Positions 1,252 through 50,091 are shown, counted from the first letter of the stretch. The stretch is DNA of 50,091 nt from Eubacteriales bacterium (GCA_045643865.1 JAZRFU010000071.1:1-50091); one strand, 5' to 3'. Translations and numbers: made by a program. Notes: generated by a model not told the origin, from the letters alone.

Positions 1252-1280
1252 ATTATATCATACTTTGTTTTTTTTGTCAA
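1252..1280 (-). promoter_or_regulatory. Sigma-A type promoter for mgsA
   Basis: Minus strand reads TTGACA (1275-1280), a 17-nt spacer ending in TGa, then TATAAT (1252-1257). Confidence 0.5.
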
Positions 1281-1344
1281 TGCTATCGGGGATATTTTTT
1301 GATATATTTTTCATTTTAAGACGATTATTTTTCACTGGATCAAA

Positions 1345-1851: not shown

Positions 1852-1869
1852 TTTATTACCTCTCCGTGC

Positions 1870-2775: not shown

Positions 2776-2894
2776 AAAAAAAGACCCTCACTTTTTTACC
2801 GTTGGTAAATATAATTTACTATCATTGAAATTATAACACAAATCTTGCACATTTTCAATACGTTGTCAAAATTTTTCAAAATATATTTTTTCAT

Positions 2895-2928
2895 GACAAA
2901 AGCGGCTCCGATTTCGGAGCCGCTTTTC
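2895..2928 (-). terminator. Rho-independent terminator downstream of the ABC ATPase gene
   Basis: AAAGCGGCUCCG-N4-CGGAGCCGCUUU hairpin, followed on the minus strand by UUUUG. Confidence 0.6.
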
Positions 2929-2944
2929 GTGATATTCTATTTTA

Positions 2945-4057: not shown

Positions 4058-4249
4058 ACTGTTTATTCCTCCTGATCTGTGGCCGCGAGGACAAAGCCCC
4101 GCCATTATTTAACATTATAATTTTACCAAAAAAACGTCAAAATTAAAAGAGTATTATTAGCCAAAAATATCATAATTTTTTTGTACATTTTGCACAAAAA
4201 TGTCATATTCGACTAACTTTCATAAAATCCGACGCAATATGGCACGTTT

Positions 4250-9140: not shown

Positions 9141-9142
9141 AC

Positions 9143-9176
9143 AAAAAATCCCGACGGATCACCGTCGGGATTTTTT
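9143..9176. terminator. Bidirectional rho-independent terminator between convergent genes
   Basis: AAAAAAUCCCGACGG-N5-CCGUCGGGAUUUUUU, with A/T tracts on both sides. Confidence 0.7.
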
Positions 9177-9182
9177 GTATTA

Positions 9183-9764
9183 TCAGTCGATATCCTCGGG
9201 CTTGTCTTCGAGAACGATATCAAAGTCACCAAGCTTATTTACCTTAAAGCCGTTCTTCTTGTACTCCTCGTAGTCAAATGCCTCAAGCTCGTCAATAGCA
9301 AGCTTGTGGAACTCGTAGAAGTTGTGCCACCATTCGTAGCCGCTTCCAAGCTCTGCATTGAGGTAAGCATCTGCGATATCGCAACCCATCTTGGGAGCTA
9401 CGTAGAACGCACCCATAGCAAGAACGTTAACGCCGTTACCCGTGATAGCGCGGAGTGCCGCGGGAACGCTTTCAACTACACCTGCATGTACGTGGGGGCA
9501 CTTGCTTGCCGCGATATGAATACCCATACCCGTGCCGCAGAAAAGGAGTGCTCTCTCGTATTCACCCTCAGAGATCATTGCGCCAACGCGAAGACCTACT
9601 CTGTGGAACATGAGATCGGTGTCATCGGGATCACTATCCACTCTTACACCAAGATCAAGGATTTTCCAACCCTTTTTGGTCAGGTGCTCTACTACCGCTT
9701 CCTTGAGAGGAAATCCTGCAAAGTCCGCACCTACTACTAAGTATTTGTCTTTTACTGTTTTCAT
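9183..9764 (-). CDS. RpiB/LacA/LacB-family sugar-phosphate isomerase
   Basis: LVVGADFAGFPLKEAVVEHLTKKGWKILDLG ... ALLFCGTGMGIHIAASKCPHVHAGVV resembles the RpiB/LacAB fold signature (CGTGxG). There is a C-terminal extension relative to classical RpiB. Confidence 0.7.
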   Translation of the reverse strand: MKTVKDKYLVVGADFAGFPLKEAVVEHLTKKGWKILDLGVRVDSDPDDTDLMFHRVGLRVGAMISEGEYERALLFCGTGMGIHIAASKCPHVHAGVVESVPAALRAITGNGVNVLAMGAFYVAPKMGCDIADAYLNAELGSGYEWWHNFYEFHKLAIDELEAFDYEEYKKNGFKVNKLGDFDIVLEDKPEDID

Positions 9765-9818: not shown

Positions 9819-10988
9819 TCAGGCAAACACAATTTTTGTGGATTGACGGAAAAGCTTATCGCCGGTTCCTTTTTTCTCATCCGATACGACCTCAAAGCAG
9901 TATGCGGTAACACCGTCGGGCAAATGATAAGAATACGCGCCGTTTTCTTTTGCCACCTGTACGCTTTCCCACTTCCAATCATGAGAATTTTTATCCCTGG
10001 AAAGAGTGTAAACGAAATTAACGCTCTCAAAAAGATCGTTTGACGAGGTCATTTTGGCAACTCCATCCTCAATGATTATATCACCGAGCTTCGTCAGTGT
10101 TGCTTCGCCGTAAATTATATGTCTGAAAAATGCATTTATCTCGGGAGTCAGATCCCAATAATGTCCGTGCTCCAGATCGCTTCTCTGCGAATAATATTTT
10201 TTGACAGGCGCAAGATCAGCACTTCTCATTCTGTTGACTGCCGAAAAACATCCGTCACCAATTCCCGAAACAAACATCATCGGTCTTGTTGCGTTGGGAA
10301 GATACGAGGAAGGGTCATAAAGCTTTATCCATTCATCATGACCGTCATGACCGCCAAATGCTTCGATGCACAATTCACTCTCCTCGGCATTTTTTAGCCA
10401 AAAGGCATCTTCATGGGCGTATCCGCAGCCGTAAACCGGAGCAAATGCGGCAATTCGATGATCAACGCCCGCAACTATATTTGTTATATATGCCCCCCAA
10501 GAAATACCCGTCATAACTATTTTGTCTGTATCAACGTCATTTCTTGCGCGGAGTATATTGTTGAGCATTATTATGTTGTAAACCGCGTGATACACCCAAG
10601 ACTGTCTGGGCGATTTGACACCCGAAAAAAGTGAACCGTGCGGCTCTCCGTTATGTGCGGCTTCGAGATTGAGTATCTTTTTCTGATCCTTGTCAAGCTT
10701 GTAACCGAACATGTCAACAGCGATTGCAACAAATCCTTTGTTATTCCAATATTTGATCCATTCGGGGAAAACCTGTCCCCCGCCACCGTGCGCCAATATG
10801 ACCGCAGGATATTTCTTTCCTTGTTCATAATTGAGCGGAACTCCTATTGCGGCAAAAGGCCACGTAGCATCAAGATGTCCGTACGGGGCGGATTTGAATT
10901 TGAGTGCCTCAATTCCCTCGCCCAAATTTATCTTCGGCATAGTATGTATTTCGGGCACTGTTGCAAACAACTTTTCAAGATTCCACAT
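9819..10988 (-). CDS. Alpha/beta hydrolase (acetyl-esterase / dienelactone-hydrolase-like)
   Basis: Oxyanion-type HGGGG (VILAHGGGGQ) and nucleophile elbow GISWGAY. No signal peptide. Confidence 0.6.
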   Translation of the reverse strand: MWNLEKLFATVPEIHTMPKINLGEGIEALKFKSAPYGHLDATWPFAAIGVPLNYEQGKKYPAVILAHGGGGQVFPEWIKYWNNKGFVAIAVDMFGYKLDKDQKKILNLEAAHNGEPHGSLFSGVKSPRQSWVYHAVYNIIMLNNILRARNDVDTDKIVMTGISWGAYITNIVAGVDHRIAAFAPVYGCGYAHEDAFWLKNAEESELCIEAFGGHDGHDEWIKLYDPSSYLPNATRPMMFVSGIGDGCFSAVNRMRSADLAPVKKYYSQRSDLEHGHYWDLTPEINAFFRHIIYGEATLTKLGDIIIEDGVAKMTSSNDLFESVNFVYTLSRDKNSHDWKWESVQVAKENGAYSYHLPDGVTAYCFEVVSDEKKGTGDKLFRQSTKIVFA

Positions 10989-11009
10989 AGAGAGTTCTCC
11001 TTTTTATTG

Positions 11010-12299
11010 TCATGTGTCGTCTGCGTCGGACAGTTCTTTTCTTTTAAGCTTTCCGACCACGGTATTGAGATAAATTATCAATCCGATCAAAAGAATTACG
11101 GAGATTACGGACACTACCTGCTGCGCGTAAACGTGCAGACCGAGGAACGTATTCTCATTGCTTTGTATGTGCGATACCAGAGGAGTTACCGCAAGCGTTG
11201 TGAAAAAGCCCGCAAAACCCGCAAGTGTACTGTTCAATGCCAGTGCACCGATTCGTTTCTCCTTATCTACATAATCATAAATAAGATTTATCGTTGCACT
11301 GTTGATGCCCGCCATTGCTATTGCGTAAAGCATATAATAAGCCGTATAGAGCACCTTACCGTTTGCAGGCACCGTAAATACATTGATCGTAAATCCTACG
11401 AGCATTATGACAAAACAAACATTAAGCATTTTAGCGAATGAATATTTATCTGCAAATTTGCCCATAGGTTTTGAAAATATCGTTCTGACAACGGCATAAG
11501 CCGCAGACAAAATCGACACGAAAGTCATTGTAAATCCAAGTTCTTTGATCTGATACGATCCGTAGAACGGAGTGGAAACATAATTCACTATGTTCCAAAG
11601 CACCGAAATGAGAATTACCTTAAACAAATTCTTATCTCTTATCAGTTCGCCCAAAAGCTTTTTCGGGGGAATCTTTTCATTCTCTTCCGCCGGCTTTTCA
11701 CAGGAGAAAATAAGCGTTGCGCTATGTAATATCATCAACACGAATACACTTATTCCGCACACGATAAATGCGCCATTAATATTGCCTATCGCTTCGAAAT
11801 GATCTATCACCGTTCCCATTGCAAACGAGAAAACCATTCCGCCTATAAGCGATACCATTTCCTTGTTCGCCGTGAAGCTGCCGCGTTTATGATCATCCAC
11901 AAGCGACATAAACCAGTTGATCTTAGGGGAGTTTACGACGTTGGTTATGATGTGTCCGAGCAACAAAAACCCGATAAACAAGACGGTTTTCAGCTCTCCG
12001 GACGAATCTATTACCGGCACTAGATAGATCAAAGCAAAGAATAGCTGATTTATCATATGCAAAACGGTAACCCAGCGCTTTACAGGTCGCTTATTCGCCA
12101 AAAATATTGCAATGACCTGAAAACCGAACCCGAGCGAAACAAAGGACGTTAAAAGTCCCGTTACTGTGTCCGATAAACCGATAGAGGTCGTTACTTTTGC
12201 AAGATACGCGCCTGTTACCAGCAAGGAAATGAAATATTCAAACGCTGCTTCCAAAATGTAAAGAAAGCGACTTAATTTATATTTATCTGTACTGTTCAT
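11010..12299 (-). CDS. MFS-type transporter (about 12 TM, possibly a sugar/oligosaccharide:cation symporter)
   Basis: Highly hydrophobic 429-436 aa product with repeated TM segments. The ORF-track start at 12320 is a TTG. I prefer the ATG at 12299 (MNSTDKYKL), but the start is uncertain. Confidence 0.65.
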   Translation of the reverse strand: MNSTDKYKLSRFLYILEAAFEYFISLLVTGAYLAKVTTSIGLSDTVTGLLTSFVSLGFGFQVIAIFLANKRPVKRWVTVLHMINQLFFALIYLVPVIDSSGELKTVLFIGFLLLGHIITNVVNSPKINWFMSLVDDHKRGSFTANKEMVSLIGGMVFSFAMGTVIDHFEAIGNINGAFIVCGISVFVLMILHSATLIFSCEKPAEENEKIPPKKLLGELIRDKNLFKVILISVLWNIVNYVSTPFYGSYQIKELGFTMTFVSILSAAYAVVRTIFSKPMGKFADKYSFAKMLNVCFVIMLVGFTINVFTVPANGKVLYTAYYMLYAIAMAGINSATINLIYDYVDKEKRIGALALNSTLAGFAGFFTTLAVTPLVSHIQSNENTFLGLHVYAQQVVSVISVILLIGLIIYLNTVVGKLKRKELSDADDT

Positions 12300-12344: not shown

Positions 12345-12388
12345 AAATCTCGCAAAGTGACATCTTGTGATGTCACTTTGCGAGATTT
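12345..12388. repeat. Perfect 20-bp-stem inverted repeat abutting the tRNA 3' end
   Basis: AAATCTCGCAAAGTGACATC (12345-12364), TTGT loop, GATGTCACTTTGCGAGATTT (12369-12388). No U tract follows on the minus strand. Confidence 0.9.
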
Positions 12389-12462
12389 GGCACCCCCAGC
12401 GAGAATCGAACTCACAACTAACCCTTAGGAGGGGCTTATTATATCCATTTAACTATGGGGGC
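12388..12462 (-). tRNA. tRNA-Arg (anticodon CCT), CCA encoded
   Basis: Minus strand: GCCCCCA UA GUUA..UAAU A AGCCC CU-CCU-AA GGGUU AGUUG GUGAG UUCGAUU CUCGC UGGGGGU G CCA. A cloverleaf could be folded by hand, with a GTTCGATTC T-loop. Confidence 0.85.
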
Positions 12463-30754: not shown

Positions 30755-30782
30755 TCCGCCCACGCGGAAAATGGAGATAAAA

Positions 30783-32393
30783 ATGAATCTTACAAATTTC
30801 AGTCTGCTTTTCCCCAACGAAAGCTCCAAGCAGGAATTCTTTGAGGGTAACGGCCGTGCAAATATCGATATGTACACGCTGGAGCAGCTCGGCATGCTTG
30901 AAATACTCGATCTTAGCGGATCAGAGCTGTCCGAATACTGCACCACCTCACAAGAGGTAATAGGATACCGCCAAGAGATCTTTGCGGATATGATGAGCTG
31001 CCCTGTCCTCTGTGACACATTCAACAAGCTTATACCGGTTCTGCACGATATAACCGAGCTTCGTCGTCTTGAGGCGGACTCCTCTGGTGGCGAGGACTAT
31101 CTTTCAAGCATCACCGAAATTGAGCTTTACATATCCTGCATTGAGATACTGTACGGCGGTCTTAAGACGGTTGAGGCAGATATCAAGAGTCGTGCTATAT
31201 CAATTCTTTGCGAAAAGGTGCGCGAGCTTGCAGAATCCGAATACTATAAGGAGCTTAACGAAAAGCTCTCTGAGCTTACAAGCCGCGTTCGTGAGATTAA
31301 GAGCATATCCGTAGGTGTCAACCTGGATGCACAGCTTCGCCCCTCTTATGCCGGGGTGCTCTCAATAAATGCCGAGCCGTTCAAATCGGGCGATACCATA
31401 GATAAGATACTCCGACTCAACTTCAAGGACGACGAATACACCTGCATCGCCAATCTTGTTCCATTTGGCAAATCGCAGTCCGACAATCAGAAAACGGCAC
31501 TTTCGAATGCATTCAACTCCGCTATCAACGACGTATATCGCTCATCGCTGAAATCGTGGAAGAAAATAGTCAACGAGTACGTTTTTGAAAACACGGATTT
31601 TTTGCTCGGTCTTATGCCTGAAATAGAATTCTTCGCAAAAGGAACTGCTATGCTCAACCGACTCCGTGAGCGCGGATATTCGCTTGTAAAGCCGCAAATA
31701 TGCGTTGGTGTCAATCCAATATTCAATGCAATTGGTCTTTACAATCCCGTAGTTGCGCTAAAGCTTAATGAGAACGAAGCTATCGTCGATAACGATATTC
31801 GCTTCAACCGCGCCGACGCGCTCATTTACGTTTTGACAGGTCCTAACCGCGGCGGTAAGTCCGTGATAACCTGCGCGATAGGTCTGGCAACTGTAATGAT
31901 GCAGCTTGGAATGTTCGTGCCTGCCACGAGTGCCGAGATAAGTCCTGCCGATGCTATATTCACCCACTTCCCTACGGGAGCTGACGATACCATTGACAAG
32001 GGACGTCTTGGAGAGGAATGCGCGCGACTTGGCGAGATATTTGATTGCGTCACTAAAGACAGTCTTGTCCTGCTTGACGAATCCTTCTCATCGACCGGCT
32101 CTTATGAGGGCTCTTATATCGCGTCCGAGGTGCTTGCGGGCATTTCGATGGTTGGATGCCGTTGCCTTTTCGCAACCCATCTTCACGAGCTTGCCGCAGA
32201 GATAGATAGAATAAACGGCGAGGTTATGACAACAGGTGGAGTAAAGATAGATACTCTTGTTGCAGGAATTGAGGAGGGCGAACGCTCCTTCAAAATATTC
32301 CGTGCCAAGCCCGACGGAAAGAGCTATGCAAGGGATATCGCCGAGAGATACGGACTTACGTACGAAAATATACTGCAAAAAATTCAAAAATAA
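30783..32393 (+). CDS. MutS-related ATPase with domain V only (no mismatch-binding or Smr domain)
   Basis: Walker A LTGPNRGGKSV, VLLDESFSSTGSYEG (Walker B region) and ATHLHEL. The N-terminal ~300 aa is helical with no recognisable MutS domain I. The start is either 30771 or 30783; the latter has GGAG 6 nt upstream. Confidence 0.7.
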   Translation: MNLTNFSLLFPNESSKQEFFEGNGRANIDMYTLEQLGMLEILDLSGSELSEYCTTSQEVIGYRQEIFADMMSCPVLCDTFNKLIPVLHDITELRRLEADSSGGEDYLSSITEIELYISCIEILYGGLKTVEADIKSRAISILCEKVRELAESEYYKELNEKLSELTSRVREIKSISVGVNLDAQLRPSYAGVLSINAEPFKSGDTIDKILRLNFKDDEYTCIANLVPFGKSQSDNQKTALSNAFNSAINDVYRSSLKSWKKIVNEYVFENTDFLLGLMPEIEFFAKGTAMLNRLRERGYSLVKPQICVGVNPIFNAIGLYNPVVALKLNENEAIVDNDIRFNRADALIYVLTGPNRGGKSVITCAIGLATVMMQLGMFVPATSAEISPADAIFTHFPTGADDTIDKGRLGEECARLGEIFDCVTKDSLVLLDESFSSTGSYEGSYIASEVLAGISMVGCRCLFATHLHELAAEIDRINGEVMTTGGVKIDTLVAGIEEGERSFKIFRAKPDGKSYARDIAERYGLTYENILQKIQK

Positions 32394-39544: not shown

Positions 39545-41797
39545 TTATATTTTGGACATTTCTCTTTGCGCCATAACAAGTCCGTAATATATACCCTGCT
39601 TTTGCAAAAGCTCGTCGTGAGTTCCAACCTCTGCAACTCTGCCCTCGTCAAGCACGATAAGCTTGGTCGCATTACGCAAGGTAGATAAACGGTGCGCTAT
39701 TGCAATCGTCGTGCGGTTTGCACTCAAATTTTTAAGCGCGTCCTGTATCTGCTTTTCGGTTTCGGTGTCAAGAGACGCCGTCGCCTCGTCAAGTATAAGT
39801 ATTTTGGGATCTCGGAGTAAGGCACGCGCTATTGCAATTCTCTGTCTTTCTCCGCCCGAGAGAGTATATCCCTTTTCTCCTACGCGAGTGTCGTAGCCGT
39901 CAGTCAGCTTTATAATAAAGTCGTGACAACCAGACAGCTTTGCAACCGCGATTATCTCCTCGCGACTTGCCGATGGCTTAGCGTAGGCAATATTCTGATA
40001 TATCGTTCCTGCAAAAAGAAACGTTTCCTGCAATACCACACCCATCTGTGTTCGAAGCGCCTCTTGAGATATATCCCTTATATCCGTTCCGTCAATGCAA
40101 ATACTTCCGTCCTCAACGTCATACATGCGCATAATGAGATTTATAAGCGTAGATTTACCCACGCCCGATTTTCCGACAAGTCCTACGAACTCGCCTGCCT
40201 TAATATGTATATCGATATTGGTGAGCACCTCTGTGCCGCTGTCATATCCAAATGAAATGTGATTAATATCTATATCTCCCTTGAATATGGGCGTCTGTGC
40301 GGTGTCGCTATCCCTTATCTCCTCGTCCTCATCTATTATTTCAAACACCTTCGCGGTAGATGTCATAAAGTTGATGATCTGTCTTGGCAGATTGGACAAC
40401 ATACGCAACGGACCGTATATCATGGTCACATACATGGAAAACTGCGACATTTCTCCCAGCGTCATATTGCCGCCGAGTATTTCATTTCCTACGTAAAACA
40501 GTATGATAAACTCACCAAAGCACATCAAGAACTGCATTACAGGCATTACCGAATACCATAGAGTATCGGACTTCATCTGGAGATCGCGCTCCTCTGATGC
40601 CGCCTCGTCGTATCTTTCGCTCTCCTTATGCTCCATTCCAAACGATTTTACCACGCGGATACCCGAAAAAATATCGTGAAGCACCGAATTGGATTTAGAG
40701 CCGCTTTGCCAGCACCTATGGAAAAGCTTATGTATCTTCTTCATAAAGAACATAAAGCCAAATACAACAAGCGGTACGGGTAGGAGAATGAGCAGGAACA
40801 GTACGCTCAAGTCGTTTATCACAAACACTATTCCAAGCGCGACAAACAGCAAAATTTGCTCTATAAGCGCAGGAAGATAATGAACGAGGAATTCCTGTAT
40901 CCTGTCAACGTCGTGCGACACGCGACGCATAAGCTCTCCTGCGGTGCGCTTTGATATTCTTGATATAGACAGCTTCTGTATCTTTCCAAAAAGCATATCT
41001 CGCAGATCCACAATAAGACCGTTACTCGCCTTGATCAGTATATGTGATCGGAACATAGTCAACAGCTTAAGGAGTATCTGCACAGCCAGCATCGACAGTA
41101 TGATCAGCACATAGTCTTTTACAACAAGAGTTTGTTGTGTCCGGCTATTTATATATTCGTCCGTTACGATACGGTTTATTTGCGGAAGCATAAGATTAAG
41201 ACCGCTGACACCGATAAACATAAGGACAGATACCGCGATAAACCACTTGTACGGCTTAACCATGTTCCACAGGCGCTTTATAAGATTGAGCTTATTAGCG
41301 CATCTTGGGCAGCTTTTAGCGCCCTTAGTAAGAGGTCTTCCGCATTTGGAGCATCTGATTGCGGTATCAAACGAAGCAGCTTCACCTTCATTTTTCACGT
41401 AGTTCTCTACTCCAACTGTTTCGGCTATACGGTTAAAGCGCTTGGATGCAGAGATCGCATTTTTGCTTGCTGACATATCCATACGGCAAAGCAAGCAATT
41501 GGAGCCGTCACTTTTCAGCTTGTACGACAAAAAGCACGTACCAACGCCCATATCAACGTTTATTCTGTCAACAAGCTTTACGTCAGCACTATGTACCTTT
41601 TCTCCATCAAGCCATACTGAAATTTCTTCATTATCCGCAGTTACTATGCCGTTACATCTTACATCGGGATTGGAGGGATGCAAATTATATGAAATTACAA
41701 ATATAAACTCGTCGCGACTTTTATTCGGATATAACTTTTTTAGCTGTGATGTCAGCTTATCCTCGACATTTCTTTTCTTTTTCTTGAAAAATCTCAT
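39545..41797 (-). CDS. ABC exporter half-transporter (TMD+NBD) with an extra N-terminal soluble domain and zinc ribbon
   Basis: Walker A GKSGVGKST, signature LSGGERQR, Walker B ILILDEAT, H-loop IAHRLST. The ~175-aa N-terminal extension ends in CSKCGRPLTKGAKSCPRC just before TM1. RBS AGGAGGG. Confidence 0.85.
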   Translation of the reverse strand: MRFFKKKKRNVEDKLTSQLKKLYPNKSRDEFIFVISYNLHPSNPDVRCNGIVTADNEEISVWLDGEKVHSADVKLVDRINVDMGVGTCFLSYKLKSDGSNCLLCRMDMSASKNAISASKRFNRIAETVGVENYVKNEGEAASFDTAIRCSKCGRPLTKGAKSCPRCANKLNLIKRLWNMVKPYKWFIAVSVLMFIGVSGLNLMLPQINRIVTDEYINSRTQQTLVVKDYVLIILSMLAVQILLKLLTMFRSHILIKASNGLIVDLRDMLFGKIQKLSISRISKRTAGELMRRVSHDVDRIQEFLVHYLPALIEQILLFVALGIVFVINDLSVLFLLILLPVPLVVFGFMFFMKKIHKLFHRCWQSGSKSNSVLHDIFSGIRVVKSFGMEHKESERYDEAASEERDLQMKSDTLWYSVMPVMQFLMCFGEFIILFYVGNEILGGNMTLGEMSQFSMYVTMIYGPLRMLSNLPRQIINFMTSTAKVFEIIDEDEEIRDSDTAQTPIFKGDIDINHISFGYDSGTEVLTNIDIHIKAGEFVGLVGKSGVGKSTLINLIMRMYDVEDGSICIDGTDIRDISQEALRTQMGVVLQETFLFAGTIYQNIAYAKPSASREEIIAVAKLSGCHDFIIKLTDGYDTRVGEKGYTLSGGERQRIAIARALLRDPKILILDEATASLDTETEKQIQDALKNLSANRTTIAIAHRLSTLRNATKLIVLDEGRVAEVGTHDELLQKQGIYYGLVMAQREMSKI

Positions 41798-41848
41798 TCG
41801 GATTTCCCTCCTTTCTCCATATTCAATGTCACAAATAAAGCTTACAAA

Positions 41849-42382
41849 TCAGAGATATATCTCAATTTTCCGATAGCTCTTGGCAGTAAGCTCGGATACA
41901 CTTTCTATCTTATAGCGATTTCCGTCAACATCTACAAGTACTATACTGTCATCGCCCGTGTGCAAAAGATTTTTGAACGTATCCTGCATTGTGAAGCTCG
42001 CGCTTTTTCCATTGGTAAAAATGACCTTCCAATATGAAAAGCCGTAGCGCTCCTTTACACTCTTGATATCCTTGATTGTAGGAGCATAGTATTTTCTGTC
42101 TATCTCGGTTTTAATGACCGACTTTACGCCGTCATCAAAATCCTCAATACTGTATATAAGACCAATCTCCTTGCCGTCATCTCCGACTACCGATATATAT
42201 TCGTATAAAAACTCGTGCGGAAAAGCTCTGTGCAAGAATATACGGTCATACTGCTTCTCTTCGCCATCATCGCAAAGAGTCATAAAAACAAACCCGTTTT
42301 TAGTACCAAAGCTTGCATTGTCCTTGTCAAGTCGCAATATGCGGGCGGACTTTTCAAGCATTATTTCATTTTTCTCTTTCAT
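41849..42382 (-). CDS. DUF1854-like protein encoded between the two ABC genes
   Basis: 177 aa, soluble. FLHRAFPHEFLYEYISVVGDDGKEIGLIYSIEDFDDGVKSVIKTEIDRKYYAPTIKDIKSVKERYGFSYWKV matches my recollection of the DUF1854 pattern. RBS GGGAGGA. Confidence 0.55.
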   Translation of the reverse strand: MKEKNEIMLEKSARILRLDKDNASFGTKNGFVFMTLCDDGEEKQYDRIFLHRAFPHEFLYEYISVVGDDGKEIGLIYSIEDFDDGVKSVIKTEIDRKYYAPTIKDIKSVKERYGFSYWKVIFTNGKSASFTMQDTFKNLLHTGDDSIVLVDVDGNRYKIESVSELTAKSYRKIEIYL

Positions 42383-42400
42383 AACGTCCTCCCTTTTACT

Positions 42401-44695
42401 TTACTCTGTTATTCCTGCGTTTTTCAACGCCTCTGCCTGCAAGGTATATAGCTTGTTGTAAACTCCGTCCTCAATGGACAAAAGCTCGAAGTGCGTTCCG
42501 CGCTCGGCAACCTTACCCTTTTCAATAACGACAAGCTCGTCCGCATCTCTCAAGGTTGACAGACGGTGCGCTATCATAATGGTAGTTTTGTCCTTGGTCA
42601 ATGCCGTAATGGCATTTTGTATCTTTTGCTCTGTTTCGGTATCCATAGCCGCAGTCGCCTCGTCAAGAATAAGTATCTTGGGATTGCGAAGTATGGCTCT
42701 GGCAATAGACAGACGCTGCTTTTCACCGCCCGAAAGGTCTTTGTATCCAAATCCTATTTTAGTGTCGTAGGCATCGGGTAATTTGATAATGAAATCATGC
42801 GCTCCCGAAAGCTTAGCCGCACTGATGACCTCATCGTACGTAGCATCGGGCTTTGCGTATCTGATATTGTCAAGTATAGAACCTATAAAGAAATACGTTT
42901 CCTGCGATACTATTGCAATGTTCTCGTAAAGCGTCTTGAAGGACAGCTCCTTGACATTTATGCCGTCTATAAGTATTTCGCCCTCGTCACAGTCGTAGAG
43001 TCGCATAAGCAGATTAACTATCGTGCTCTTGCCCGCTCCAGTATGACCGACTATTCCAAGCGTATTTCCCGCGGGTACGTCAAAGCTGACGTTATTGATT
43101 ATCTTGCGGTTACGGACGTATGAAAAGTCCACATTTTTGAATTCGACCCGACCGTCCACTTTATCGGGAGTAACGGCATTTTCACTCTCGGTTATATCGG
43201 GAGTGGTATCGTATATTTCAAACAGTCGCTGCAATGCATTGGTGCTTGCCGCAGACCAGTCTATCATATCTGCGAAGAAATACATAGGCGTATATATCAT
43301 ATTGACGTACGCCACAAATTTTATAAGCTGACCGTAAGAAAAGTCATTGTAGCCAACAATAACCATCCAGCCACCAAGACCGAGCGCGATTATATTTCCG
43401 AGATACAAAATAAGTCCAAGCGATGGGTACACGTATCGGTTAAAAAGCGCCTGCCTTTTTTGACTGTCTGCCGCATTTTTATTGGTTCTGCCAAATCGGT
43501 CTATTTCGTTTTTCTCATTGGAGAACGCCTTTACCACTCTCATTCCCTGCAACACGTCTGAAACCTGAGAATTCAGCTTGCGCGCGCCCGAATATGTTTT
43601 GGCGTGCAGCTTCATGCTCTTGCGATAGCTCTTTAGTATGAGCAAAAAGAACAGCGGCACTGTTATCAATGAGCAAAGGGCGAGAAGCGGGTTTTCGATA
43701 AACAATATCACACATATAACCACTACCTGTACAACGTTTACCAAAAAGTAAGGAACACCGTCGCAAAAAAAGTAATATATGGTATTGGAGTCGTTGTTGA
43801 CCTGCGTCATCAGTGCTCCCGTCTGTCTGCCGTTAAAAAATGACAGTGACAGCTTTTCTATGGAATTAAAAACCGTCATTTTAAGGTCATATACTATCCT
43901 TGCCGCAATCCGCGCGGAAACAACTCCGTTGATCAAGCTGAACAAATGCGATAGCAATCTTGTCGCGATGATTATTCCCACAACGAGCAGTATTTCGCCG
44001 AAAAAGCTTCCGTCCTCGCGCAGTACCTCATCATAGAAAAACTGATTGGAGAAATACGGCACAAGAATTCCCGTCGCCGTAAGCAACACAAGAGAAGCGA
44101 GTATGATTGCCAGATGCTTTTTATATTTGAGCAAAAACATACCAAATCGGCGGTACAGCTTGCCCTTCTCCATACACCTTGGGCATACTCTTCTGTTTTT
44201 ATCAGGATACCTCATCGAGCACTTGGGGCATCGGTGCGACGCAGGATCGTCCTCGGCATCAACCTCGAAATCCACACCCTCAAGCTCGCCCTTTTTCATT
44301 CTCTCGAAATACTTAATGAATAGTAATGCCGACGCTCTGCAGGTGTTCGTCATAGCGCAGATAAAAACATTATCTCCACTCTCGGTAACTGCCGTCAATC
44401 GTGCACCCGACAAAAGATCCTCGACCTTCATCTCTTTTATCGTGTCAATGTCATACGACACAAACGATTCCTCGTGCCACTGTACCTCAATGCGCGACTT
44501 TTTATTCGGCTTTTCTATCGCGGTATGTCCCGAGATGACATATATGCTCTTTTCGGTTGCCACAACGTAAGTATCGCAAAGCACGTGATCTGAATTCATA
44601 TCGCAATATGAAGCCAGCATAATATCGCTCTCATTTACGCCGTTATCCGAGAGCGACCGATATATATATTCAGGTATCTTATCGGTTATAAGCAT
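42401..44695 (-). CDS. ABC exporter half-transporter (TMD+NBD) with an extra N-terminal soluble domain and zinc ribbon
   Basis: Walker A GHTGAGKST, signature LSGGEKQR, Walker B ILILDEAT, H-loop IAHRLST. The N-terminal ~185 aa ends in CPKCSMRYPDKNRRVCPRC. The start is set at M10 (ATG 44695) behind AAGGAGGTG. Confidence 0.85.
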   Translation of the reverse strand: MLITDKIPEYIYRSLSDNGVNESDIMLASYCDMNSDHVLCDTYVVATEKSIYVISGHTAIEKPNKKSRIEVQWHEESFVSYDIDTIKEMKVEDLLSGARLTAVTESGDNVFICAMTNTCRASALLFIKYFERMKKGELEGVDFEVDAEDDPASHRCPKCSMRYPDKNRRVCPRCMEKGKLYRRFGMFLLKYKKHLAIILASLVLLTATGILVPYFSNQFFYDEVLREDGSFFGEILLVVGIIIATRLLSHLFSLINGVVSARIAARIVYDLKMTVFNSIEKLSLSFFNGRQTGALMTQVNNDSNTIYYFFCDGVPYFLVNVVQVVVICVILFIENPLLALCSLITVPLFFLLILKSYRKSMKLHAKTYSGARKLNSQVSDVLQGMRVVKAFSNEKNEIDRFGRTNKNAADSQKRQALFNRYVYPSLGLILYLGNIIALGLGGWMVIVGYNDFSYGQLIKFVAYVNMIYTPMYFFADMIDWSAASTNALQRLFEIYDTTPDITESENAVTPDKVDGRVEFKNVDFSYVRNRKIINNVSFDVPAGNTLGIVGHTGAGKSTIVNLLMRLYDCDEGEILIDGINVKELSFKTLYENIAIVSQETYFFIGSILDNIRYAKPDATYDEVISAAKLSGAHDFIIKLPDAYDTKIGFGYKDLSGGEKQRLSIARAILRNPKILILDEATAAMDTETEQKIQNAITALTKDKTTIMIAHRLSTLRDADELVVIEKGKVAERGTHFELLSIEDGVYNKLYTLQAEALKNAGITE

Positions 44696-44736
44696 ATATT
44701 TCACCTCCTTTGAAGCTTGCATAAAACCACAAATTA

Positions 44737-44765
44737 ATTATACCGCTTTTATTGTCTCTTGTCAA
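44737..44765 (-). promoter_or_regulatory. Sigma-A consensus promoter of the ABC-DUF1854-ABC operon
   Basis: Minus strand: TTGACA (44760-44765), 17 nt, TATAAT (44737-44742). Confidence 0.55.
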
Positions 44766-44887
44766 TAAACTATAAGTAGAATTAAAAATTTTATATATAT
44801 ACGTCGAGTTTTGAAAAACAACGGTTGAAATTTATGTTTTTTTGTGTTATACTCTATTTAAGAACTCTATAAAAAGGAGCAATTTAC

Positions 44888-46267
44888 ATGAAGGGTCTTA
44901 AAACCATATATATATGTTCAAATTGTAATTATAAATCTCCGAAATGGATGGGTAAATGTCCGTCCTGCAGCCAATGGAACACTCTTGTTGAAGACGTAAT
45001 AAGCACCGCGCCCGAGGACATCGCAGTAAGACGTAAAAGCATGTCGGGAACGGGCATAGACAACCGTGCTATATCTTACGCTGATCTCGAAATACCCGAA
45101 TATATACGCTCGGTAACAGGTCTTGATGAGCTTGACCGTGTGCTTGGCGGCGGTCTTGTTCACGGCTCTGTCGTTCTCATCTCGGGTGAGCCGGGAATAG
45201 GAAAATCAACTCTGCTGATGCAGATATCCGAGTGCTTGGGTAACAATAAGCGCGTTCTGTATATATCGGGAGAGGAATCGGGCGGACAGATAAAGCTTCG
45301 CGCAAAGCGACTTGGCGTTTCGGGCAAAAATCTCTTTATTCTTACCGAAACCAACCTTGACGGTATCCTCAAGGAAGCCGACAAGATAAAGCCCGATATA
45401 ATGATAGTGGACTCTATACAAACGATATACGACGACACGATAAAATCCGCGCCCGGTAGTGTAACGCAGGTGCGTGAGTCCGCGCTTACACTCATAAACC
45501 GCGCTAAATCACACGGAATATCAATGCTCCTTGTCGGTCACGTAAACAAGGAGGGCGGCATTGCGGGTCCTAAGGTGCTGGAGCATATGGTTGATGCCGT
45601 TCTCTGCTTTGAGGGCGAAAAGCTCCAATCATACAGAATAATACGCGCCAACAAAAACAGATTCGGCTCGACTAATGAAATAGGCGTTTTTGAGATGACA
45701 GACAAGGGACTTGTTGAAATCCCCAATCCGTCCGAAATGCTGCTTTCAGGAAGACCTAAAAACACTCCCGGAAACTGCGCCGTATGCACTATCGAAGGAA
45801 CGCGCCCGATAATCGCAGAGATACAGGCGCTTGTTTCTCCCACTGCCTTTCCCGCTCCGAGAAGAACGGCAAACGGAATTGACTATAACCGCCTTTGCTT
45901 GATAATTGCGGTACTTGAAAAGCGTCTTGGACTTAAATTCTATCAGAACGACGTTTATATGAATGTCATTGGTGGTCTGTATCTCGATGAACCGGCAAGT
46001 GATGCAGCTATCGCCTTGGCGCTCATATCCTCACTTACCGACAAGGCAGTTCCCGACGATCTTATCGCTATTGGAGAGCTTGGACTTTCGGGTGAGTGTC
46101 GCGCGGTTTCCAACCTTGAGCAGCGAGTAAAGGAAGCACAGCGTCTCGGATTCACTAAAGCCATCGTTCCATACAAAAATATTGAAAAGCGCAAATTTGA
46201 TACCTCGATGGAGCTTATTCCTATACACAGCATTTATGAGGCAATACGTGTGCTTGGCAATAATTGA
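44888..46267 (+). CDS. radA: DNA repair protein RadA/Sms
   Basis: N-terminal zinc finger YICSNCNYKSPKWMGKCPSCSQWNTL, Walker A GEPGIGKSTL, KNRFG motif, and a Lon-protease-like C-terminal domain. Confidence 0.92.
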   Translation: MKGLKTIYICSNCNYKSPKWMGKCPSCSQWNTLVEDVISTAPEDIAVRRKSMSGTGIDNRAISYADLEIPEYIRSVTGLDELDRVLGGGLVHGSVVLISGEPGIGKSTLLMQISECLGNNKRVLYISGEESGGQIKLRAKRLGVSGKNLFILTETNLDGILKEADKIKPDIMIVDSIQTIYDDTIKSAPGSVTQVRESALTLINRAKSHGISMLLVGHVNKEGGIAGPKVLEHMVDAVLCFEGEKLQSYRIIRANKNRFGSTNEIGVFEMTDKGLVEIPNPSEMLLSGRPKNTPGNCAVCTIEGTRPIIAEIQALVSPTAFPAPRRTANGIDYNRLCLIIAVLEKRLGLKFYQNDVYMNVIGGLYLDEPASDAAIALALISSLTDKAVPDDLIAIGELGLSGECRAVSNLEQRVKEAQRLGFTKAIVPYKNIEKRKFDTSMELIPIHSIYEAIRVLGNN

Positions 46268-46288
46268 TAACAACGCAGCAAAATAATC

Positions 46289-46317
46289 AACCACCCTTCA
46301 AAAAGGGTGGTTTTTTA
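46289..46317 (+). terminator. radA terminator
   Basis: AACCACCCUU-CAAAA-AGGGUGGUUUUUUAUUU. Confidence 0.7.
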
Positions 46318-46318
46318 T

Positions 46319-46347
46319 TTGACAACGTATATTTTTTGTGGTATAAT
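46319..46347 (+). promoter_or_regulatory. Sigma-A consensus promoter (extended -10) of the TerB/ATPase/helicase operon
   Basis: TTGACA (46319-46324), a 17-nt spacer ending in TGg, then TATAAT (46342-46347). Confidence 0.6.
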
Positions 46348-46397
46348 AATATATTACCAAGAATTACGAGATTTCACGAGGGGGGAGGTTTGATTTT

Positions 46398-48116
46398 ATG
46401 AGTATATATGAAAAGGGCGATGGCTTTTGGAATCTTGACGATTATGTAAGACCGTCTAAAAGCCAATCTTCAAAGAGCACATATAAAGCAAGCTTGAAAA
46501 GCGACAGTACAGTAGTAGAGATAGTCGCGCCGCAAGACCAAAAGCGCAGTTCTTCACAATTTAATGACTCCAAATTAACTCACAGTCAAGACAGTGTTAT
46601 AACTAAATTCATTCCCCCGAAAAGTGATGCTGTTTTCGCTCCCAAGCATGTGCTATTCGAATATTCTCCGCAAAATCCTTTTATAAAAAGCGTGAGAGTG
46701 CTTGCCGACAAGCCCGATAGCCGCATATTCGTAACGGATAATCTTTTTATGCGCGAGCGTCGCGCATTACTTGACAGAACGGTGAAGGAATCGCCGTTTA
46801 TTCCCTTTTATTCTTACGCTCCAAGATATTCACAGCTAACCAAGCCCCAGCTCAAATGGTATCTTTGGTGGCGAGAAAACGTACGCGCGGGAAACTTTAT
46901 GAAAACCGACCAGTCGTATATAATGCTTTATGCATACGAGCTGGCGGCAAGTGAGGACGGCGAGGATAAGCAAAAGGCGCTCGAATCATTGTGCGCTCTG
47001 CTCACTCACTATTCCGACCGCGAAATACCGCTCGTTTTCAAAATGATAATACGCGATATGATATGCGATTTCTGCCTCATTAACCGCCTGACTCCACCTA
47101 TGGATTCGTTAGGCGAGGCGGGGCGTCAGATACTTTACGGATCATTTCTTCCCGAGCTTTTCGTCGATCTTTCACACGATAACAACGGCGCGATAATCTC
47201 CTCGCTCTCTGTGTACGATTATCGCAGAAGTAAGTTTTTCAACGAACAGACCAAAACGGTATTTATGCGTGCAATACACGGAGCTTTGAGGACTGTTATG
47301 GACAATGCGGAAGCATTTGAGGCAATAACCTCATTTACCAAGGGAGTTTACGGATCTATAACGGCGGAGCGCCACCCGTTCGTGCGAATGACCAATATCG
47401 TAAATCGCAACGTAACTGTAGAAATAAGCTACTTTGAAATGTCGAATATGAGATCGGCAATAACGGACATTGTAAGATATTCCGAAAACAAGGTACGAGA
47501 GCATCTGGGAATAAAGAACAAGATCAACGTAATGTCTGTCAATCCGATTGCCAAAGGCGTAATAGACCGCTTTTTCGCCGAAAACCTTCCCGCGCAAGCG
47601 ATGGCGGATCGCCGCAGACGTGAAAATCGAATTACAGAAGCACTTGAAAACGAATATGACAAGCTATACGACGTTCCAAAAGCTGAAATATCTACCGAAA
47701 ACGCCATGCTCATAGAGCGCGAATCCTGGAACACCACCAAAATACTCGTCGAAGCGTTTTCCGACGGTATGGAAGGTGAGAGCGACAGCTATGCTATGCC
47801 GCAGGAACAAATAGCAGCACCCGACACAATAAATCCGATAGATATTCCATCACCCATGCAAGTGTATGCGGACACATCGGATACGTTCTTGCAGATCAAA
47901 TCAAAGCTTGGCGATATTTCCGAATTTATATCTCTGTGCCTAAACAAAGACGCGCGAGCGCAACGTACGTTTGCTCATACTCACGGTTATAGCACAGACG
48001 AGCTTGCAGACCGCATCAACGAGGCGGCACTGGAGGTCATTGGAGACATAATTCTTGAGGAAGAAGGACAAGCTTACTCTGTAATAGAAGATTATATTTC
48101 CCTTTTTAACACCTGA
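46398..48116 (+). CDS. TerB-N / TerB-C domain protein (SngA-like)
   Basis: PRYSQLTKPQLKWYLWWRENVRAGNFMKTDQSYIMLYAYELA is a TerB-N-type core. The C-terminal STDELADRINEAALEVIGDIILEEEGQAYSVIEDY is TerB-C-type. The N-terminal ~100 aa is S/K/Q-rich. RBS GGGGGAGG. Confidence 0.65.
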   Translation: MSIYEKGDGFWNLDDYVRPSKSQSSKSTYKASLKSDSTVVEIVAPQDQKRSSSQFNDSKLTHSQDSVITKFIPPKSDAVFAPKHVLFEYSPQNPFIKSVRVLADKPDSRIFVTDNLFMRERRALLDRTVKESPFIPFYSYAPRYSQLTKPQLKWYLWWRENVRAGNFMKTDQSYIMLYAYELAASEDGEDKQKALESLCALLTHYSDREIPLVFKMIIRDMICDFCLINRLTPPMDSLGEAGRQILYGSFLPELFVDLSHDNNGAIISSLSVYDYRRSKFFNEQTKTVFMRAIHGALRTVMDNAEAFEAITSFTKGVYGSITAERHPFVRMTNIVNRNVTVEISYFEMSNMRSAITDIVRYSENKVREHLGIKNKINVMSVNPIAKGVIDRFFAENLPAQAMADRRRRENRITEALENEYDKLYDVPKAEISTENAMLIERESWNTTKILVEAFSDGMEGESDSYAMPQEQIAAPDTINPIDIPSPMQVYADTSDTFLQIKSKLGDISEFISLCLNKDARAQRTFAHTHGYSTDELADRINEAALEVIGDIILEEEGQAYSVIEDYISLFNT

Positions 48117-48149
48117 TAAAAGTCAATATCAAAGGAGTATCAATTATAT

Positions 48150-49550
48150 ATGAACAGTTCCCTTAATACGACATCTTATCCTACAGTGCCCCGCAGAATA
48201 CTCTCCTCTCTGCTCTCCAGCGTATCTGCGGGCGTAGTTCCGAGAGTCGGAGCGCCTTATATCGCTATCGGAAGAAATGATGAAATAGGCGCATTTTTGT
48301 CCGACCTTGAGGAGATAAATGAGGGCGGCGGCGCTATGCGTTTCCTTATTGGACGATACGGAAGCGGAAAGAGCTTTCTTATGCAGCTTATCCGTGGGTA
48401 CGCCCTCGAACGCGATTTTCTGACTGCGGACTGCGATCTTTCCCCCGAAAGACGTCTTTGCGGTAGCGGTCACGGCGGAATATCGACCTATCGCGAGCTT
48501 ATGAAAAATCTCGCTTCAAAATCCTCACCCGACGGAGCTGCGCTCTCAAAGGTTATCTCGCGTTGGATCGGAAAGCTTCGCTCGGAGCTTGTCGGAAGCG
48601 ACATATCTCCCGACAGTCCCTCATTTGAACGCGAGCTTGCCAAAAAAATCAACGCCGAGCTTGCCGAGCTTGAATTTTTCGTTGGCGGATTTGATTTTTC
48701 CAGAGTCATATTTGAATATTACAAGGCGAGCATTTCGGACAGCGAGGACGCCAATGCAAAAATGAGCGCCTGCCTTTGCTGGATGCGCGGTGAATACTCA
48801 AACAAAACCGAAGCAAAGCGCGCTCTCGGATTTTCAGTATCAGTAATCATAGATGACGACAACTGGTACGATTTTCTTAAGCTCTGGGCGGTATTGTCCA
48901 AACGAATGGGCTATCGCGGTCTTGTCGTATTCATTGACGAATGTGTCAACCTTTACAAAATCCCCCATAGAATAAGCCGCGAGAACAACTACGAAAAGAT
49001 TCTCTCCATGTTCAACGACACCCTGCAAGGTCGCGCCCCCGGACTTGATATAATCTTTGGCGGTACACCCCAATTTCTCGAAGATACAAGACGCGGACTT
49101 TTCAGCTACGAGGCATTGCGCTCGCGTCTTTGCGATAGCAGATTTGCGCTTGACGGCTTCAAAAATCTCATAGGTCCCGTTATCCGCTTGCGCCGACTTA
49201 CAGACGACGAGCTTTTTGCGCTCATTCAAAGAGTAACAGTTCTCTATTCTCAATATTATAATTGGGAATGTACTGTTACCAATGAGGACCGCTTGAAATT
49301 CCTCAATATATGTCTTTCGCGCGCGGGCGCGGACAGTATGATAACTCCCCGTGAGATGCTGCGCGATTATATGACTGTCCTCAATATCCTTATGCAGAAT
49401 CCTACCGCTAAATTTGACGACGTGGTTGGAAGCTGCGTTACGTTGAAAACAGACAAGGTCAGCGAAGACGTATCAGATGAAACAACCGTGCCGACAACTA
49501 AAAATGACACTCAAGCCAAGCGCTATTCCGCGCAGGATATAGAGTTTTGA
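48150..49550 (+). CDS. DUF2791-family P-loop ATPase (BrxD-like / SngB-like)
   Basis: RRILSSLLSSVSAGVVPRVGAPYIAIGRNDEI..GGGAMRFLIGRYGSGKSFLMQLIRGYALERDFLTADCDLSPERRL. Walker A GSGKS, Walker B LVVFIDE. RBS AAAGGAG. Confidence 0.65.
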   Translation: MNSSLNTTSYPTVPRRILSSLLSSVSAGVVPRVGAPYIAIGRNDEIGAFLSDLEEINEGGGAMRFLIGRYGSGKSFLMQLIRGYALERDFLTADCDLSPERRLCGSGHGGISTYRELMKNLASKSSPDGAALSKVISRWIGKLRSELVGSDISPDSPSFERELAKKINAELAELEFFVGGFDFSRVIFEYYKASISDSEDANAKMSACLCWMRGEYSNKTEAKRALGFSVSVIIDDDNWYDFLKLWAVLSKRMGYRGLVVFIDECVNLYKIPHRISRENNYEKILSMFNDTLQGRAPGLDIIFGGTPQFLEDTRRGLFSYEALRSRLCDSRFALDGFKNLIGPVIRLRRLTDDELFALIQRVTVLYSQYYNWECTVTNEDRLKFLNICLSRAGADSMITPREMLRDYMTVLNILMQNPTAKFDDVVGSCVTLKTDKVSEDVSDETTVPTTKNDTQAKRYSAQDIEF

Positions 49551-49561
49551 GGTGCTATGAT

Positions 49562-50091
49562 ATGACACAGGCAGACCTTATATTTGAACGCTTTCCCGAT
49601 TTCATACGGGAATACATTTATTCTCATTCTTGGGAGTCCCTACGCGACGTACAGATAGCGGCGGCTAAAACTATATTTGAAACGGACAACAATCTGCTCT
49701 TAACCTCGTCCACCGCAAGCGGTAAGACCGAAGCCGCCTTTTTCCCTATACTTTCGCTTATGCACGACGACCCCCCGTCCAGCATTGGAGTTTTGTATAT
49801 AGCGCCCTTGAAAAGTCTTATAAACGATCAATTTGACCGACTTGAAGAGCTGCTTGATATGACGGGAGTGAAGGTAACGCATTGGCACGGTGACGTAGCA
49901 ATGTCACACAAAAAAAAGCTGCTTGAGCACCCGTCGGGTATATTACAAATAACACCCGAATCGCTTGAAGCAATGCTCATAAACCGTTCCAATGACATTC
50001 CGCGCCTGTTCGGTGATCTTCGTTTTATAGTCATTGACGAAATACACACCTTGACGGGCACTGATCGCGGAAATCAGATAATATGTCAGCT
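49562..50091 (+). CDS. Lhr-like DEAD/DEAH-box superfamily-2 helicase, N-terminal part (continues beyond the window; SngC/BrxHI-like)
   Basis: Not in the ORF track because it runs off the edge. My translation gives MTQADLIFERFPDFIREYIYSHSWESLRDVQIAAAKTIFETDNNLLLTSSTASGKTEAAFFPILS...YIAPLKSLINDQ...FIVIDEIHTL, with motifs Q, I, Ia and II. It starts 11 nt after the ATPase stop. Confidence 0.75.
   Translation, partial: MTQADLIFERFPDFIREYIYSHSWESLRDVQIAAAKTIFETDNNLLLTSSTASGKTEAAFFPILSLMHDDPPSSIGVLYIAPLKSLINDQFDRLEELLDMTGVKVTHWHGDVAMSHKKKLLEHPSGILQITPESLEAMLINRSNDIPRLFGDLRFIVIDEIHTLTGTDRGNQIICQ

Follow-up and report, generated by a model that had tools for sequence, protein, structure and literature searches.

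The DNA analyzed here is a complete contig of 50,091 nucleotides (nt) from an Eubacteriales bacterium (GCA_045643865.1, JAZRFU010000071.1:1-50091), which is referred to below as the window. At its 3' end, downstream of radA (44888 to 46267, plus strand, by gene call), lie three plus-strand genes of the Shango type, i.e., sngA (46398 to 48116; 572 amino acids), sngB (48150 to 49550; 466 amino acids), and the first 176 codons of sngC (49562 to 50091), which runs off the contig end. The window is the whole contig, so that sngC is incomplete for a reason of assembly and not of biology. A first inspection of the DNA without database searches (the sequence-only reading) had described gene 3 as a helicase truncated by the window edge, and the full-length form of 771 amino acids was recovered from contig L180 of the Joint Genome Institute (JGI). 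This contig, reached via the cluster representative P0515, has 97.1% nucleotide identity to positions 43080 to 50091 of the window and the same 33- and 11-nt intergenic gaps, and it belongs to the same species. The identification itself is ordinary, as standard tools (PADLOC and DefenseFinder) would call the locus Shango. The uncommon features are its fixed, vertically inherited residence on the chromosome and a first gene that evolves several-fold faster.

The radA gene ends in an intrinsic terminator with a 10-bp stem, a 4-nt loop, and a T-run (46289 to 46320, plus strand; hairpin at 46289 to 46312), found by the terminator scan and in the sequence, which is predicted to insulate the triad from radA transcription. 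The triad has its own sigma-70/SigA-type promoter on the plus strand (46319 to 46347), composed of TTGACA (46319 to 46324), a 17-nt spacer, a TGn element (46339 to 46341), and TATAAT (46342 to 46347). It matches the consensus at 12 of 12 positions, with the extended -10 element in addition, and scores highest of all plus-strand sites in the region that was scanned; transcription is predicted to start near 46354. GGAGG, read from the sequence as the ribosome-binding site, is located on the same strand at 46384 to 46388, 9 nt before the sngA ATG. The gap between sngA and sngB is 33 nt and that between sngB and sngC is 11 nt, and the terminator scan revealed no strong internal terminator within the triad. 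The three genes are adjacent, on one strand, and behind one upstream promoter, which is the arrangement expected of Shango as a single operon. The perfect TTGACA-17(TG)-TATAAT promoter directly after the radA terminator, as first described, was confirmed by the promoter and terminator scans, and the exact coordinates agree with the three same-strand genes and their gaps. The motifs quoted at that stage, i.e., QLKWYLWWRENVRAG, SYIMLYAYELA, DELADRINEAALEVIGDIILEEE, GRYGSGKSF, VVFIDE, TASGKTEAAF, and VIDEIH, are all present in the translations.

For comparison, we used the best 80 of 417 SngB relatives obtained by an SngB scan of GTDB species representatives. Their SngB proteins are 69 to 86% identical, and all of them come from uncultured Clostridia, Eubacteriales, or Oscillospiraceae metagenome-assembled genomes (MAGs) of animal and human guts. 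The 300 nt upstream of sngA were surveyed in 72 of these related loci with the pattern TTGAC[AT]-N14-TGn-TA[TAC]AAT. The pattern is present in 58 loci and perfect in 42, whereas 0.6% of control windows taken at these loci contain it. Loci with entirely different flanks have it as well, which indicates that the promoter belongs to the cassette. Conservation of a consensus promoter argues for strong constitutive expression of the operon. Inspection by eye gave no evident LexA-type box in the promoter, and the Rfam scan detected no element in or near the operon, i.e., no riboswitch or other known RNA there.

Shango comprises a TerB-like protein, an ATPase, and a DEAD/DEAH helicase, and it is active against phages in Pseudomonas aeruginosa and Escherichia coli (Johnson et al. 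2023, Nucleic Acids Research, PMC10250203; Millman et al. 2022). The published protection is modest (10- to 100-fold), and the mechanism was still called unclear in the literature of 2025. The same composition had been proposed for the window and is borne out by PADLOC, in which the cognate Shango model is the top match for each gene, well above the paralogues from bacteriophage exclusion (BREX) systems. Profile hidden Markov model (HMM) searches were significant for TerB_N, BrxC_BrxD, and DEAD, and Helicase_C was found in the L180 protein. The systems of P. aeruginosa PA14 and E. coli share with the window the same three components in the same order and the lack of a nuclease, and SngB and SngC cover their models nearly in full. 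SngA, on the other hand, matches its model far more poorly (130 bits) and carries a disordered N-terminal extension of roughly 100 amino acids. A further difference is the location: the published systems occupy variable defense hotspots (cDHS1), tRNA-inserted genomic islands, or plasmids, whereas the system of the window is a syntenic, vertically inherited resident among housekeeping genes within a clade of Clostridia from the gut.

The match between SngA and the PADLOC SngA model (6.2e-38) aligns model positions 81 to 521 of 528. Pfam TerB_N is found in SngA at 1.9e-15, and TerB_C reaches 25.9 bits, which is 0.4 bits under the Pfam cutoff of 26.3; nearly all listed SngA homologues carry TerB_N together with precomputed TerB_C (PF15615). 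The TerB-N core that had been recognized by eye therefore stands, while the TerB-C tail, just below the cutoff in this protein, is supported by nearly all of the listed homologues. The label "TerB protein" holds in the sense that TerB_N and TerB_C are detectable; the TerB domain proper (PF05099) was not detected in SngA by the Pfam scan at E<=0.1. The AlphaFold2 (AF2) model of SngA, built with 56 homologues, has a predicted local distance difference test score (pLDDT) of 75. In this model, residues 1 to 76 form a disordered head rich in Ser, Lys, and Gln, residues 80 to 455 a core that is modeled with confidence and consists mostly of helices, plus two small sheets, residues 458 to 493 a disordered linker, and residues 496 to 570 a confident helix-helix-helix-strand-strand domain, which is the winged-helix-like TerB_C. 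The core has no solved structural relative, as Foldseek gave no PDB match at E<0.5. The TerB_C region gave weak winged-helix matches of approximately 76 residues with low probability (LysR N-terminal domains and MotA). No helices resembling transmembrane segments are predicted in the model.

SngB matches the PADLOC SngB model at 4.5e-156 (518 bits) and the BrxD model at 4.4e-45 (153 bits). It had been recognized as an ATPase of the DUF2791 type, and Pfam BrxC_BrxD (PF10923, formerly DUF2791) agrees at 5e-148, with both the Walker A (GRYGSGKSF) and Walker B (VVFIDE) motifs intact. The score against the NCBIfam BrxD equivalog is 151 bits, far below the cutoff of 350, which indicates that gene 2 is not BrxD proper. 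The AF2 model (pLDDT 87; predicted template modeling score, 0.84) takes the shape of an AAA+ fold that includes a helical insert and, at the C-terminus, a bundle of helices, with possible relatives among the ATPases of the origin recognition complex (ORC)/Cdc6 group and BrxC. Its Foldseek neighbors are HslU, BrxC (9zll and 9zdx), Cdc6/Orc1 (2qby), ORC subunits, RdrA, and TnsC. HslU ranks first, above BrxC, Cdc6/Orc1, and ORC, for which E is approximately 1e-3 and the template modeling (TM) scores are only 0.3 to 0.46. No solved structure related to SngB by sequence was found. A 2026 analysis in Nucleic Acids Research describes BrxD as a standalone ORC-Cdc6 AAA+ ATPase that is tightly linked to BrxHI and proposed to be the loader or activator of this helicase. 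SngB is thus a standalone AAA+ ATPase that is predicted from the model to be of the ORC/Cdc6-BrxC kind; its assignment to this clade rests on the BrxD literature.

Whereas Cdc6 has a C-terminal winged-helix DNA-binding domain, SngB is without one and ends instead in a disordered tail with a conserved peptide (residues 432 to 466; 49443 to 49547, plus strand). The tail consists of a hypervariable, acidic, proline-rich linker (pLDDT 31 to 40) and the terminal peptide KRYSAQDIEF-COOH (49518 to 49547). The C-terminus [KR][KR][FY]xxxD[IL][ED]F-COOH is present in nearly all of 85 orthologues. Of 81 full-length proteins that represent distant members of the SngB/BrxD family (30 to 48% identity), 38 have an acidic stretch and then hydrophobic-x-hydrophobic-COOH at their end, e.g., DDLASFKL and FADFEL, compared with an internal background of 9% (p of approximately 2e-18). 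The terminal peptide looks like a putative docking peptide on a flexible tether, and we propose that it may couple SngB to SngC or SngA. As a lead, the tail is reminiscent of the acidic C-terminal tip of the single-stranded DNA-binding protein SSB.

The 176 residues of SngC encoded in the window are identical to the first 176 of the L180 protein and match the PADLOC SngC model at 3.4e-79, compared with 2e-53 for BrxHI. They include motif I (TASGKT) and motif II (DEIH), with a Pfam DEAD match of 1e-26. The full-length protein matches SngC at 4.9e-240 (797 bits) over model positions 5 to 715 of 720, and BrxHI at 4e-128 (427 bits). It contains DEAD and Helicase_C domains, whereas WH_Lhr (20 bits) stays under its cutoff of 27 bits, and the Pfam scan of the L180 protein detected no nuclease domain. 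Among solved structures, those closest to it in sequence are Lhr (5v9x, 1.6e-26; 7lhl) and YprA of Bacillus subtilis (6znp), with E values from 1e-26 to 2e-25, and the description of gene 3 as an Lhr-type superfamily 2 (SF2) helicase holds in this sense. SngC shares with the Lhr and YprA (MrfA) repair helicases the SF2 core, and it gives a weak Lhr winged-helix signal, but the similarity is mostly limited to the helicase core, and the scores against the NCBIfam Lhr and ligase-associated helicase equivalogs are far under their thresholds. A published phylogeny places SngC in a defense-specific SF2 clade together with BrxHI, DruE, and DpdJ.

The parallel with BrxD/BrxHI that had been drawn for the ATPase and helicase is supported by the cross-matches (4e-45 and 2e-53) and by the dyad known from the literature. 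In type 2 (Pgl) BREX, BrxD and BrxHI likewise form a tightly linked, homologous pair of an ATPase and an SF2 helicase with winged-helix and Lhr C-terminal domain-like modules. Unlike type 2 BREX, the locus in the window has no PglZ, PglX, BrxC, or PglW and thus no methylation-based self/non-self module; the partner of the pair is a TerB_N/TerB_C protein. Hachiman (HamAB) and other helicase-sensor defenses offer a conceptual likeness, in that DNA is surveyed by an SF2 helicase, which then sets off immunity (PMC12278908). The partner of the helicase in Hachiman is the nuclease effector HamA, whereas there is no nuclease at the locus in the window, and the HamB models match only at 1.7e-17.

The gene order A-B-C is retained throughout the 80 related loci. 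We divided these into a closest synteny group (SngB identity of at least 77%) and more distant lineages (69 to 76%). In the closest group, radA (86 to 92% identical) is upstream of the triad in 15 loci, preceded in 12 by a block of ABC, DUF1854, and ABC genes, and a convergent rny-tldD-pmbA-HAD-tgt block is downstream in 23; the exceptions to this synteny are L025, L026, and L021, the last of which has a short flank. Other loci were selected on RadA alone to avoid ascertainment through Shango. Four of the five with a RadA identity of 86 to 98% contain the triad, directly downstream of radA at 98%, 90%, and 86% and after a 4-kb insert at 91%. The fifth (89%) is uninformative; its visible flank is filled by two giant open reading frames (ORFs), as in L015, where the triad comes after such ORFs. 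A species with 84% RadA identity retains the aroA-spoIVA-radA synteny but has unrelated genes next and no Shango within 10 kb. In a locus with 82% identity, the triad is not adjacent to radA, and the visible flank is only 0.7 kb long.

SngA evolves at a rate very different from those of SngB and SngC. In 20 syntenic genomes, the median amino acid identity and the median nonsynonymous divergence (dN) are 88.6% and 0.085 for RadA, 84.6% and 0.117 for SngC, 82.3% and 0.139 for SngB, and 50.6% and 0.450 for SngA, which diverges approximately 3 to 5 times faster than SngB and SngC. For the closest genome pairs, omega is 0.015 to 0.03 for RadA, 0.03 to 0.07 for SngB and SngC, and 0.08 to 0.18 for SngA. 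The variation of SngA is raised across the whole protein and peaks at residues 1 to 65 and 455 to 515. Its database homologues include one sister-species allele with 74% identity, and all others are at 56% or less. The combination of a slow ATPase-helicase engine with a fast TerB_N/TerB_C subunit points to SngA as the specificity element. A recent allelic replacement of sngA between the window and L162 was considered and rejected; a sliding window gave uniformly lower identity (as for a sister species) with two hypervariable segments and no sharp recombination block. In the pair L014 and L018, on the other hand, the synonymous divergence (dS) of radA is 0.12 and that of sngA, sngB, and sngC is 1.07, 0.93, and 0.54, respectively, which suggests that the cassette was replaced there through recombination with a diverged allele, i.e., that allelic exchange may occur occasionally.

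Several observations weigh against a typical defense system. The triad is found in every interpretable genome of the genus-level clade, which is atypical for accessory immunity, and its pairwise divergence tracks that of RadA (Spearman coefficients of 0.79 for SngA, 0.83 for SngB, and 0.78 for SngC). The GC content equals that of the flanks. There is no defense island, as the identified neighbors are all housekeeping genes (radA, rny, tldD/pmbA, and tgt; elsewhere holB, nrdR, valS, and ribF), and no integrase, transposase, or other defense gene was found among the neighbors scanned in the window flank and the related loci. Domain scans of the complete locus revealed no effector, i.e., no nuclease or toxin. 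The omega of SngA is well below 1, so that relaxed constraint, as opposed to an arms race, could account for its rapid change. Anti-phage activity is known only for the systems of P. aeruginosa and E. coli, and the host here is an uncultured organism represented by a MAG. We infer the roles as loader, tether, and sensor that are discussed below.

Synteny, codivergence with RadA, and the host-like GC content together indicate that the triad is a vertically inherited, long-term resident within the genus-level clade. The sequence-only reading had named an invariant, syntenic core locus with no tie to mobile or variable regions as evidence against its interpretation. Within this clade, the locus is largely of that kind; neither the patchy distribution nor the linkage to mobile or defense genes that marks a defense island or mobile locus was found, and only the flanking intergenic slots vary. 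Such fixation weakens the assumption of a typical mobile defense island and leaves the identification as Shango unaffected. The wider SngB family is found on 695 plasmids of PLSDB, of which 542 are conjugative, mostly from Klebsiella and Salmonella. Other plasmids with family members come from Paenibacillus, Bacillus, and Clostridium estertheticum, where they stand beside genes annotated as "TerB N-terminal domain-containing protein." No SngB homologue was matched among phage records. The family as a whole, being carried by many conjugative plasmids, thus behaves like mobile defense cargo.

The slot between radA and sngA varies in length between 0.15 kb and over 8 kb, and its inserts are giant ORFs or other ORFs without an assigned function. 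It is an insertion hotspot (L015, 49 to 8079; L007, 7 to 8120; L021, 2501 to 8019; L178, 9532 to 17500; L179, 9431 to 13033) that holds giant ORFs of 700 to 1450 amino acids, of which those of L021 have only faint signals of the surface-protein type (SpaA and BNR). In the slot between sngC and rny, which spans 0.15 to 5 kb, there are helix-turn-helix and AraC regulators, TPR-like proteins, and ORFs without an assigned function. In L180, sngC is followed on the same strand by a gene for a YitT-family membrane protein (8797 to 9540), not by rny as in most relatives.

In the distant lineages, the contexts of the triad are holB-yaaT-methyltransferase, dacA-ribF, valS, aconitase, and a sodium:solute symporter. 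Eight loci that belong to at least 4 synteny groups (L052, 15444 to 15893; L044, L046, L055, L060, L067, L079, and L080) carry nrdR downstream of sngC, and holB, encoding the delta-prime subunit of DNA polymerase III, is upstream in another group (e.g., L052, 7109 to 8122). The recurrence of radA, holB, and nrdR gives a replication and repair neighborhood that may or may not be meaningful and could be a coincidence. In many of the distant loci, sngB and sngC are separated by genes for GH39-like, polysaccharide deacetylase, TMEM164-like, EutH, and CXXCG-family proteins, and in one distant locus a GDSL lipase gene stands between sngA and sngB. Interrupting genes on the same strand are located at 11414 to 12727 in L037, 11420 to 12118 in L047, 11384 to 12142 in L021, 4240 to 5334 in L073, 12030 to 12653 in L039, and 4490 to 5287 in L048. 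Interruption of this kind is odd for a tightly coupled defense cassette. The interrupting genes were rejected as a conserved fourth Shango gene, as they are a miscellany, and the downstream nrdR is a housekeeping neighbor; no fourth gene conserved with the triad was found in the complete locus or its relatives.

Two loci, L043 (3609 to 6412) and L066 (3564 to 8736), contain sngA and sngB but lack sngC over the next 2.8 kb and 5.1 kb, respectively, and SngC may have been lost or displaced there. The 740-amino-acid ORF after sngB in L043 was rejected as a helicase, as it has no relationship to SngC and resembles an antisense artifact. In a distant metagenome contig (L084; RadA identity, 68%), a Shango triad (155 to 5589) lies on the opposite strand, 4.4 kb upstream of radA (10001 to 11104). 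Its SngB and SngC are 70 to 71% identical, compared with approximately 59% from linear extrapolation of the close clade. This excess in identity makes an older horizontal transfer among gut Clostridia possible.

Taken together, the locus is a complete three-gene Shango (SngABC) system, fixed in the chromosome, that probably acts as a constitutive helicase-based defense in which SngB loads or activates SngC and SngA gates the pair. SngA would be the specificity or sensor subunit, which recognizes a phage-derived cue in the form of entering DNA, an intermediate of replication, or a phage protein and then gates SngB and SngC. SngB would oligomerize and load or activate SngC on foreign DNA, similar to a loader of a replicative helicase, and its C-terminal peptide is probably the tether. 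ATP-driven translocation or unwinding by SngC would then disrupt phage replication, either directly or by making the DNA accessible to host nucleases. The absence of a nuclease or obvious toxin, noted at first for the visible part, holds for the complete locus in the domain scans; as no effector is visible, interference would be mediated by the helicase or depend on host nucleases.

The features that set this locus apart from mobile Shango systems suit a domesticated genome-maintenance module, in which the triad was co-opted for, or has always served in, housekeeping DNA surveillance, repair, or the restart of replication. The ORC-like ATPase would then load the Lhr-like helicase where DNA is stalled or damaged, and phage defense would be absent or secondary. 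The syntenic position between radA (15 loci) and rny (23 loci), the triad in four of the five RadA-selected loci (86 to 98%), the codivergence with RadA, the strong purifying selection on SngB and SngC (omega of 0.03 to 0.07), and the host-like GC content are all in line with it. So are the holB, nrdR, valS, and ribF neighbors elsewhere and the unrelated metabolic genes tolerated between sngB and sngC. The nearest solved relatives of SngC, Lhr and YprA/MrfA, are DNA-repair helicases. However, the models that match best in the HMM searches derive from defense systems, the SngB family is plasmid-borne elsewhere, and the triad is absent at the locus in the species with 84% RadA identity and hence not essential at the family level. 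Rapid divergence and hypervariable segments, as in SngA, are uncommon in a repair factor, inspection by eye shows no evident LexA-type box, and the proximity to radA, holB, and nrdR may be a coincidence. We regard this explanation as the main rival, of low probability. At a similarly low likelihood, the triad of a large gut Oscillospirales/Clostridia clade could be, in place of accessory immunity, a domesticated core operon for surveillance and helicase loading that is fixed beside replication and repair genes (radA in the window, holB and nrdR in other lineages) and expressed from its own conserved promoter, with SngA as an adaptor and the SngB peptide as a docking element resembling the SSB tail.

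Defense in the Shango sense might also be directed mainly at plasmids and conjugative or transforming DNA, with the triad acting on the entry of single-stranded DNA or on rolling-circle intermediates. A nuclease-free helicase or translocase with an ORC-like loader fits the recognition of origins or entry intermediates, and the operon directly adjoins radA, whose product is a factor in recombination and transformation. The modest (10- to 100-fold) protection against phages published for Shango also speaks for it. The literature searched contains no report of anti-plasmid activity for Shango, however, the SngB family is itself common on conjugative plasmids, and nothing in the locus discriminates plasmid from phage targets, so that we consider general exclusion of mobile elements unlikely. 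It is very improbable that the operon is a Ter-type module for tellurite or metal stress, in which SngA would sense a metal or ligand in the manner of TerB. The TerB_N and TerB_C domains were originally described in proteins associated with TerB, for which a role in sensing membranes or ligands has been a matter of speculation in the literature, but SngA has neither PF05099 (at E<=0.1) nor transmembrane-like helices in its model, and terZ/A/C/D/E are not nearby; the absence of both the domain and the ter neighbors led us to reject this reading. An orphan remnant of type 2 or type 6 BREX, i.e., BrxD-BrxHI left after loss of pglZ, pglX, brxC, and pglW, is the most improbable of the explanations. 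Genes 2 and 3 do match BrxD (4e-45) and BrxHI (2e-53 to 4e-128) as homologous dyads, but the scores favor the Shango models (518 versus 153 bits for SngB and 797 versus 427 bits for SngC), and the NCBIfam BrxD score is 151 bits against a cutoff of 350. A TerB_N/TerB_C gene always precedes the pair, and no PglZ, PglX, or BrxC gene was found in the window flank or the related loci inspected. The missing core genes and the failed match to the BrxD equivalog effectively refute the BREX-remnant explanation.

Other features of the window were observed apart from the operon. A SpoIVA gene upstream is consistent with a host among the spore-forming Clostridia. Between spoIVA and radA, an ABC exporter-DUF1854-ABC exporter block (39545 to 44722, minus strand) is preceded by a perfect TTGACA-17-TATAAT promoter of its own (44765 to 44737, minus strand). 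The block is present in the 12 GTDB loci linked to radA whose upstream sequence is long enough, as well as in 5 relatives chosen on RadA; it is missing in the species with 84% RadA identity, where spoIVA abuts radA. A 540-amino-acid protein (30771 to 32393, plus strand), whose sole match is MutS domain V (MutS2-like/MutS-related), is encoded at the same position in related species. The only Rfam/ARAGORN match in the 50-kb contig is a tRNA-Arg(CCT) gene (12388 to 12462, minus strand).

Shango is a validated anti-phage system with an unexplained mechanism and no nuclease or toxin. Three points lift the present locus slightly above a routine assignment, i.e., the atypical fixation, the rate asymmetry that nominates SngA, and the tail motif of SngB. 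The clade provides a natural comparative set of dozens of orthologous, syntenic operons, and the terminal peptide of SngB, which also occurs in distant family members and possibly in BrxD, offers a mutable handle on the coupling between the ATPase and its partner. The long vertical retention of the triad among housekeeping genes bears on whether some helicase-based defenses double as, or derive from, genome-maintenance machinery.

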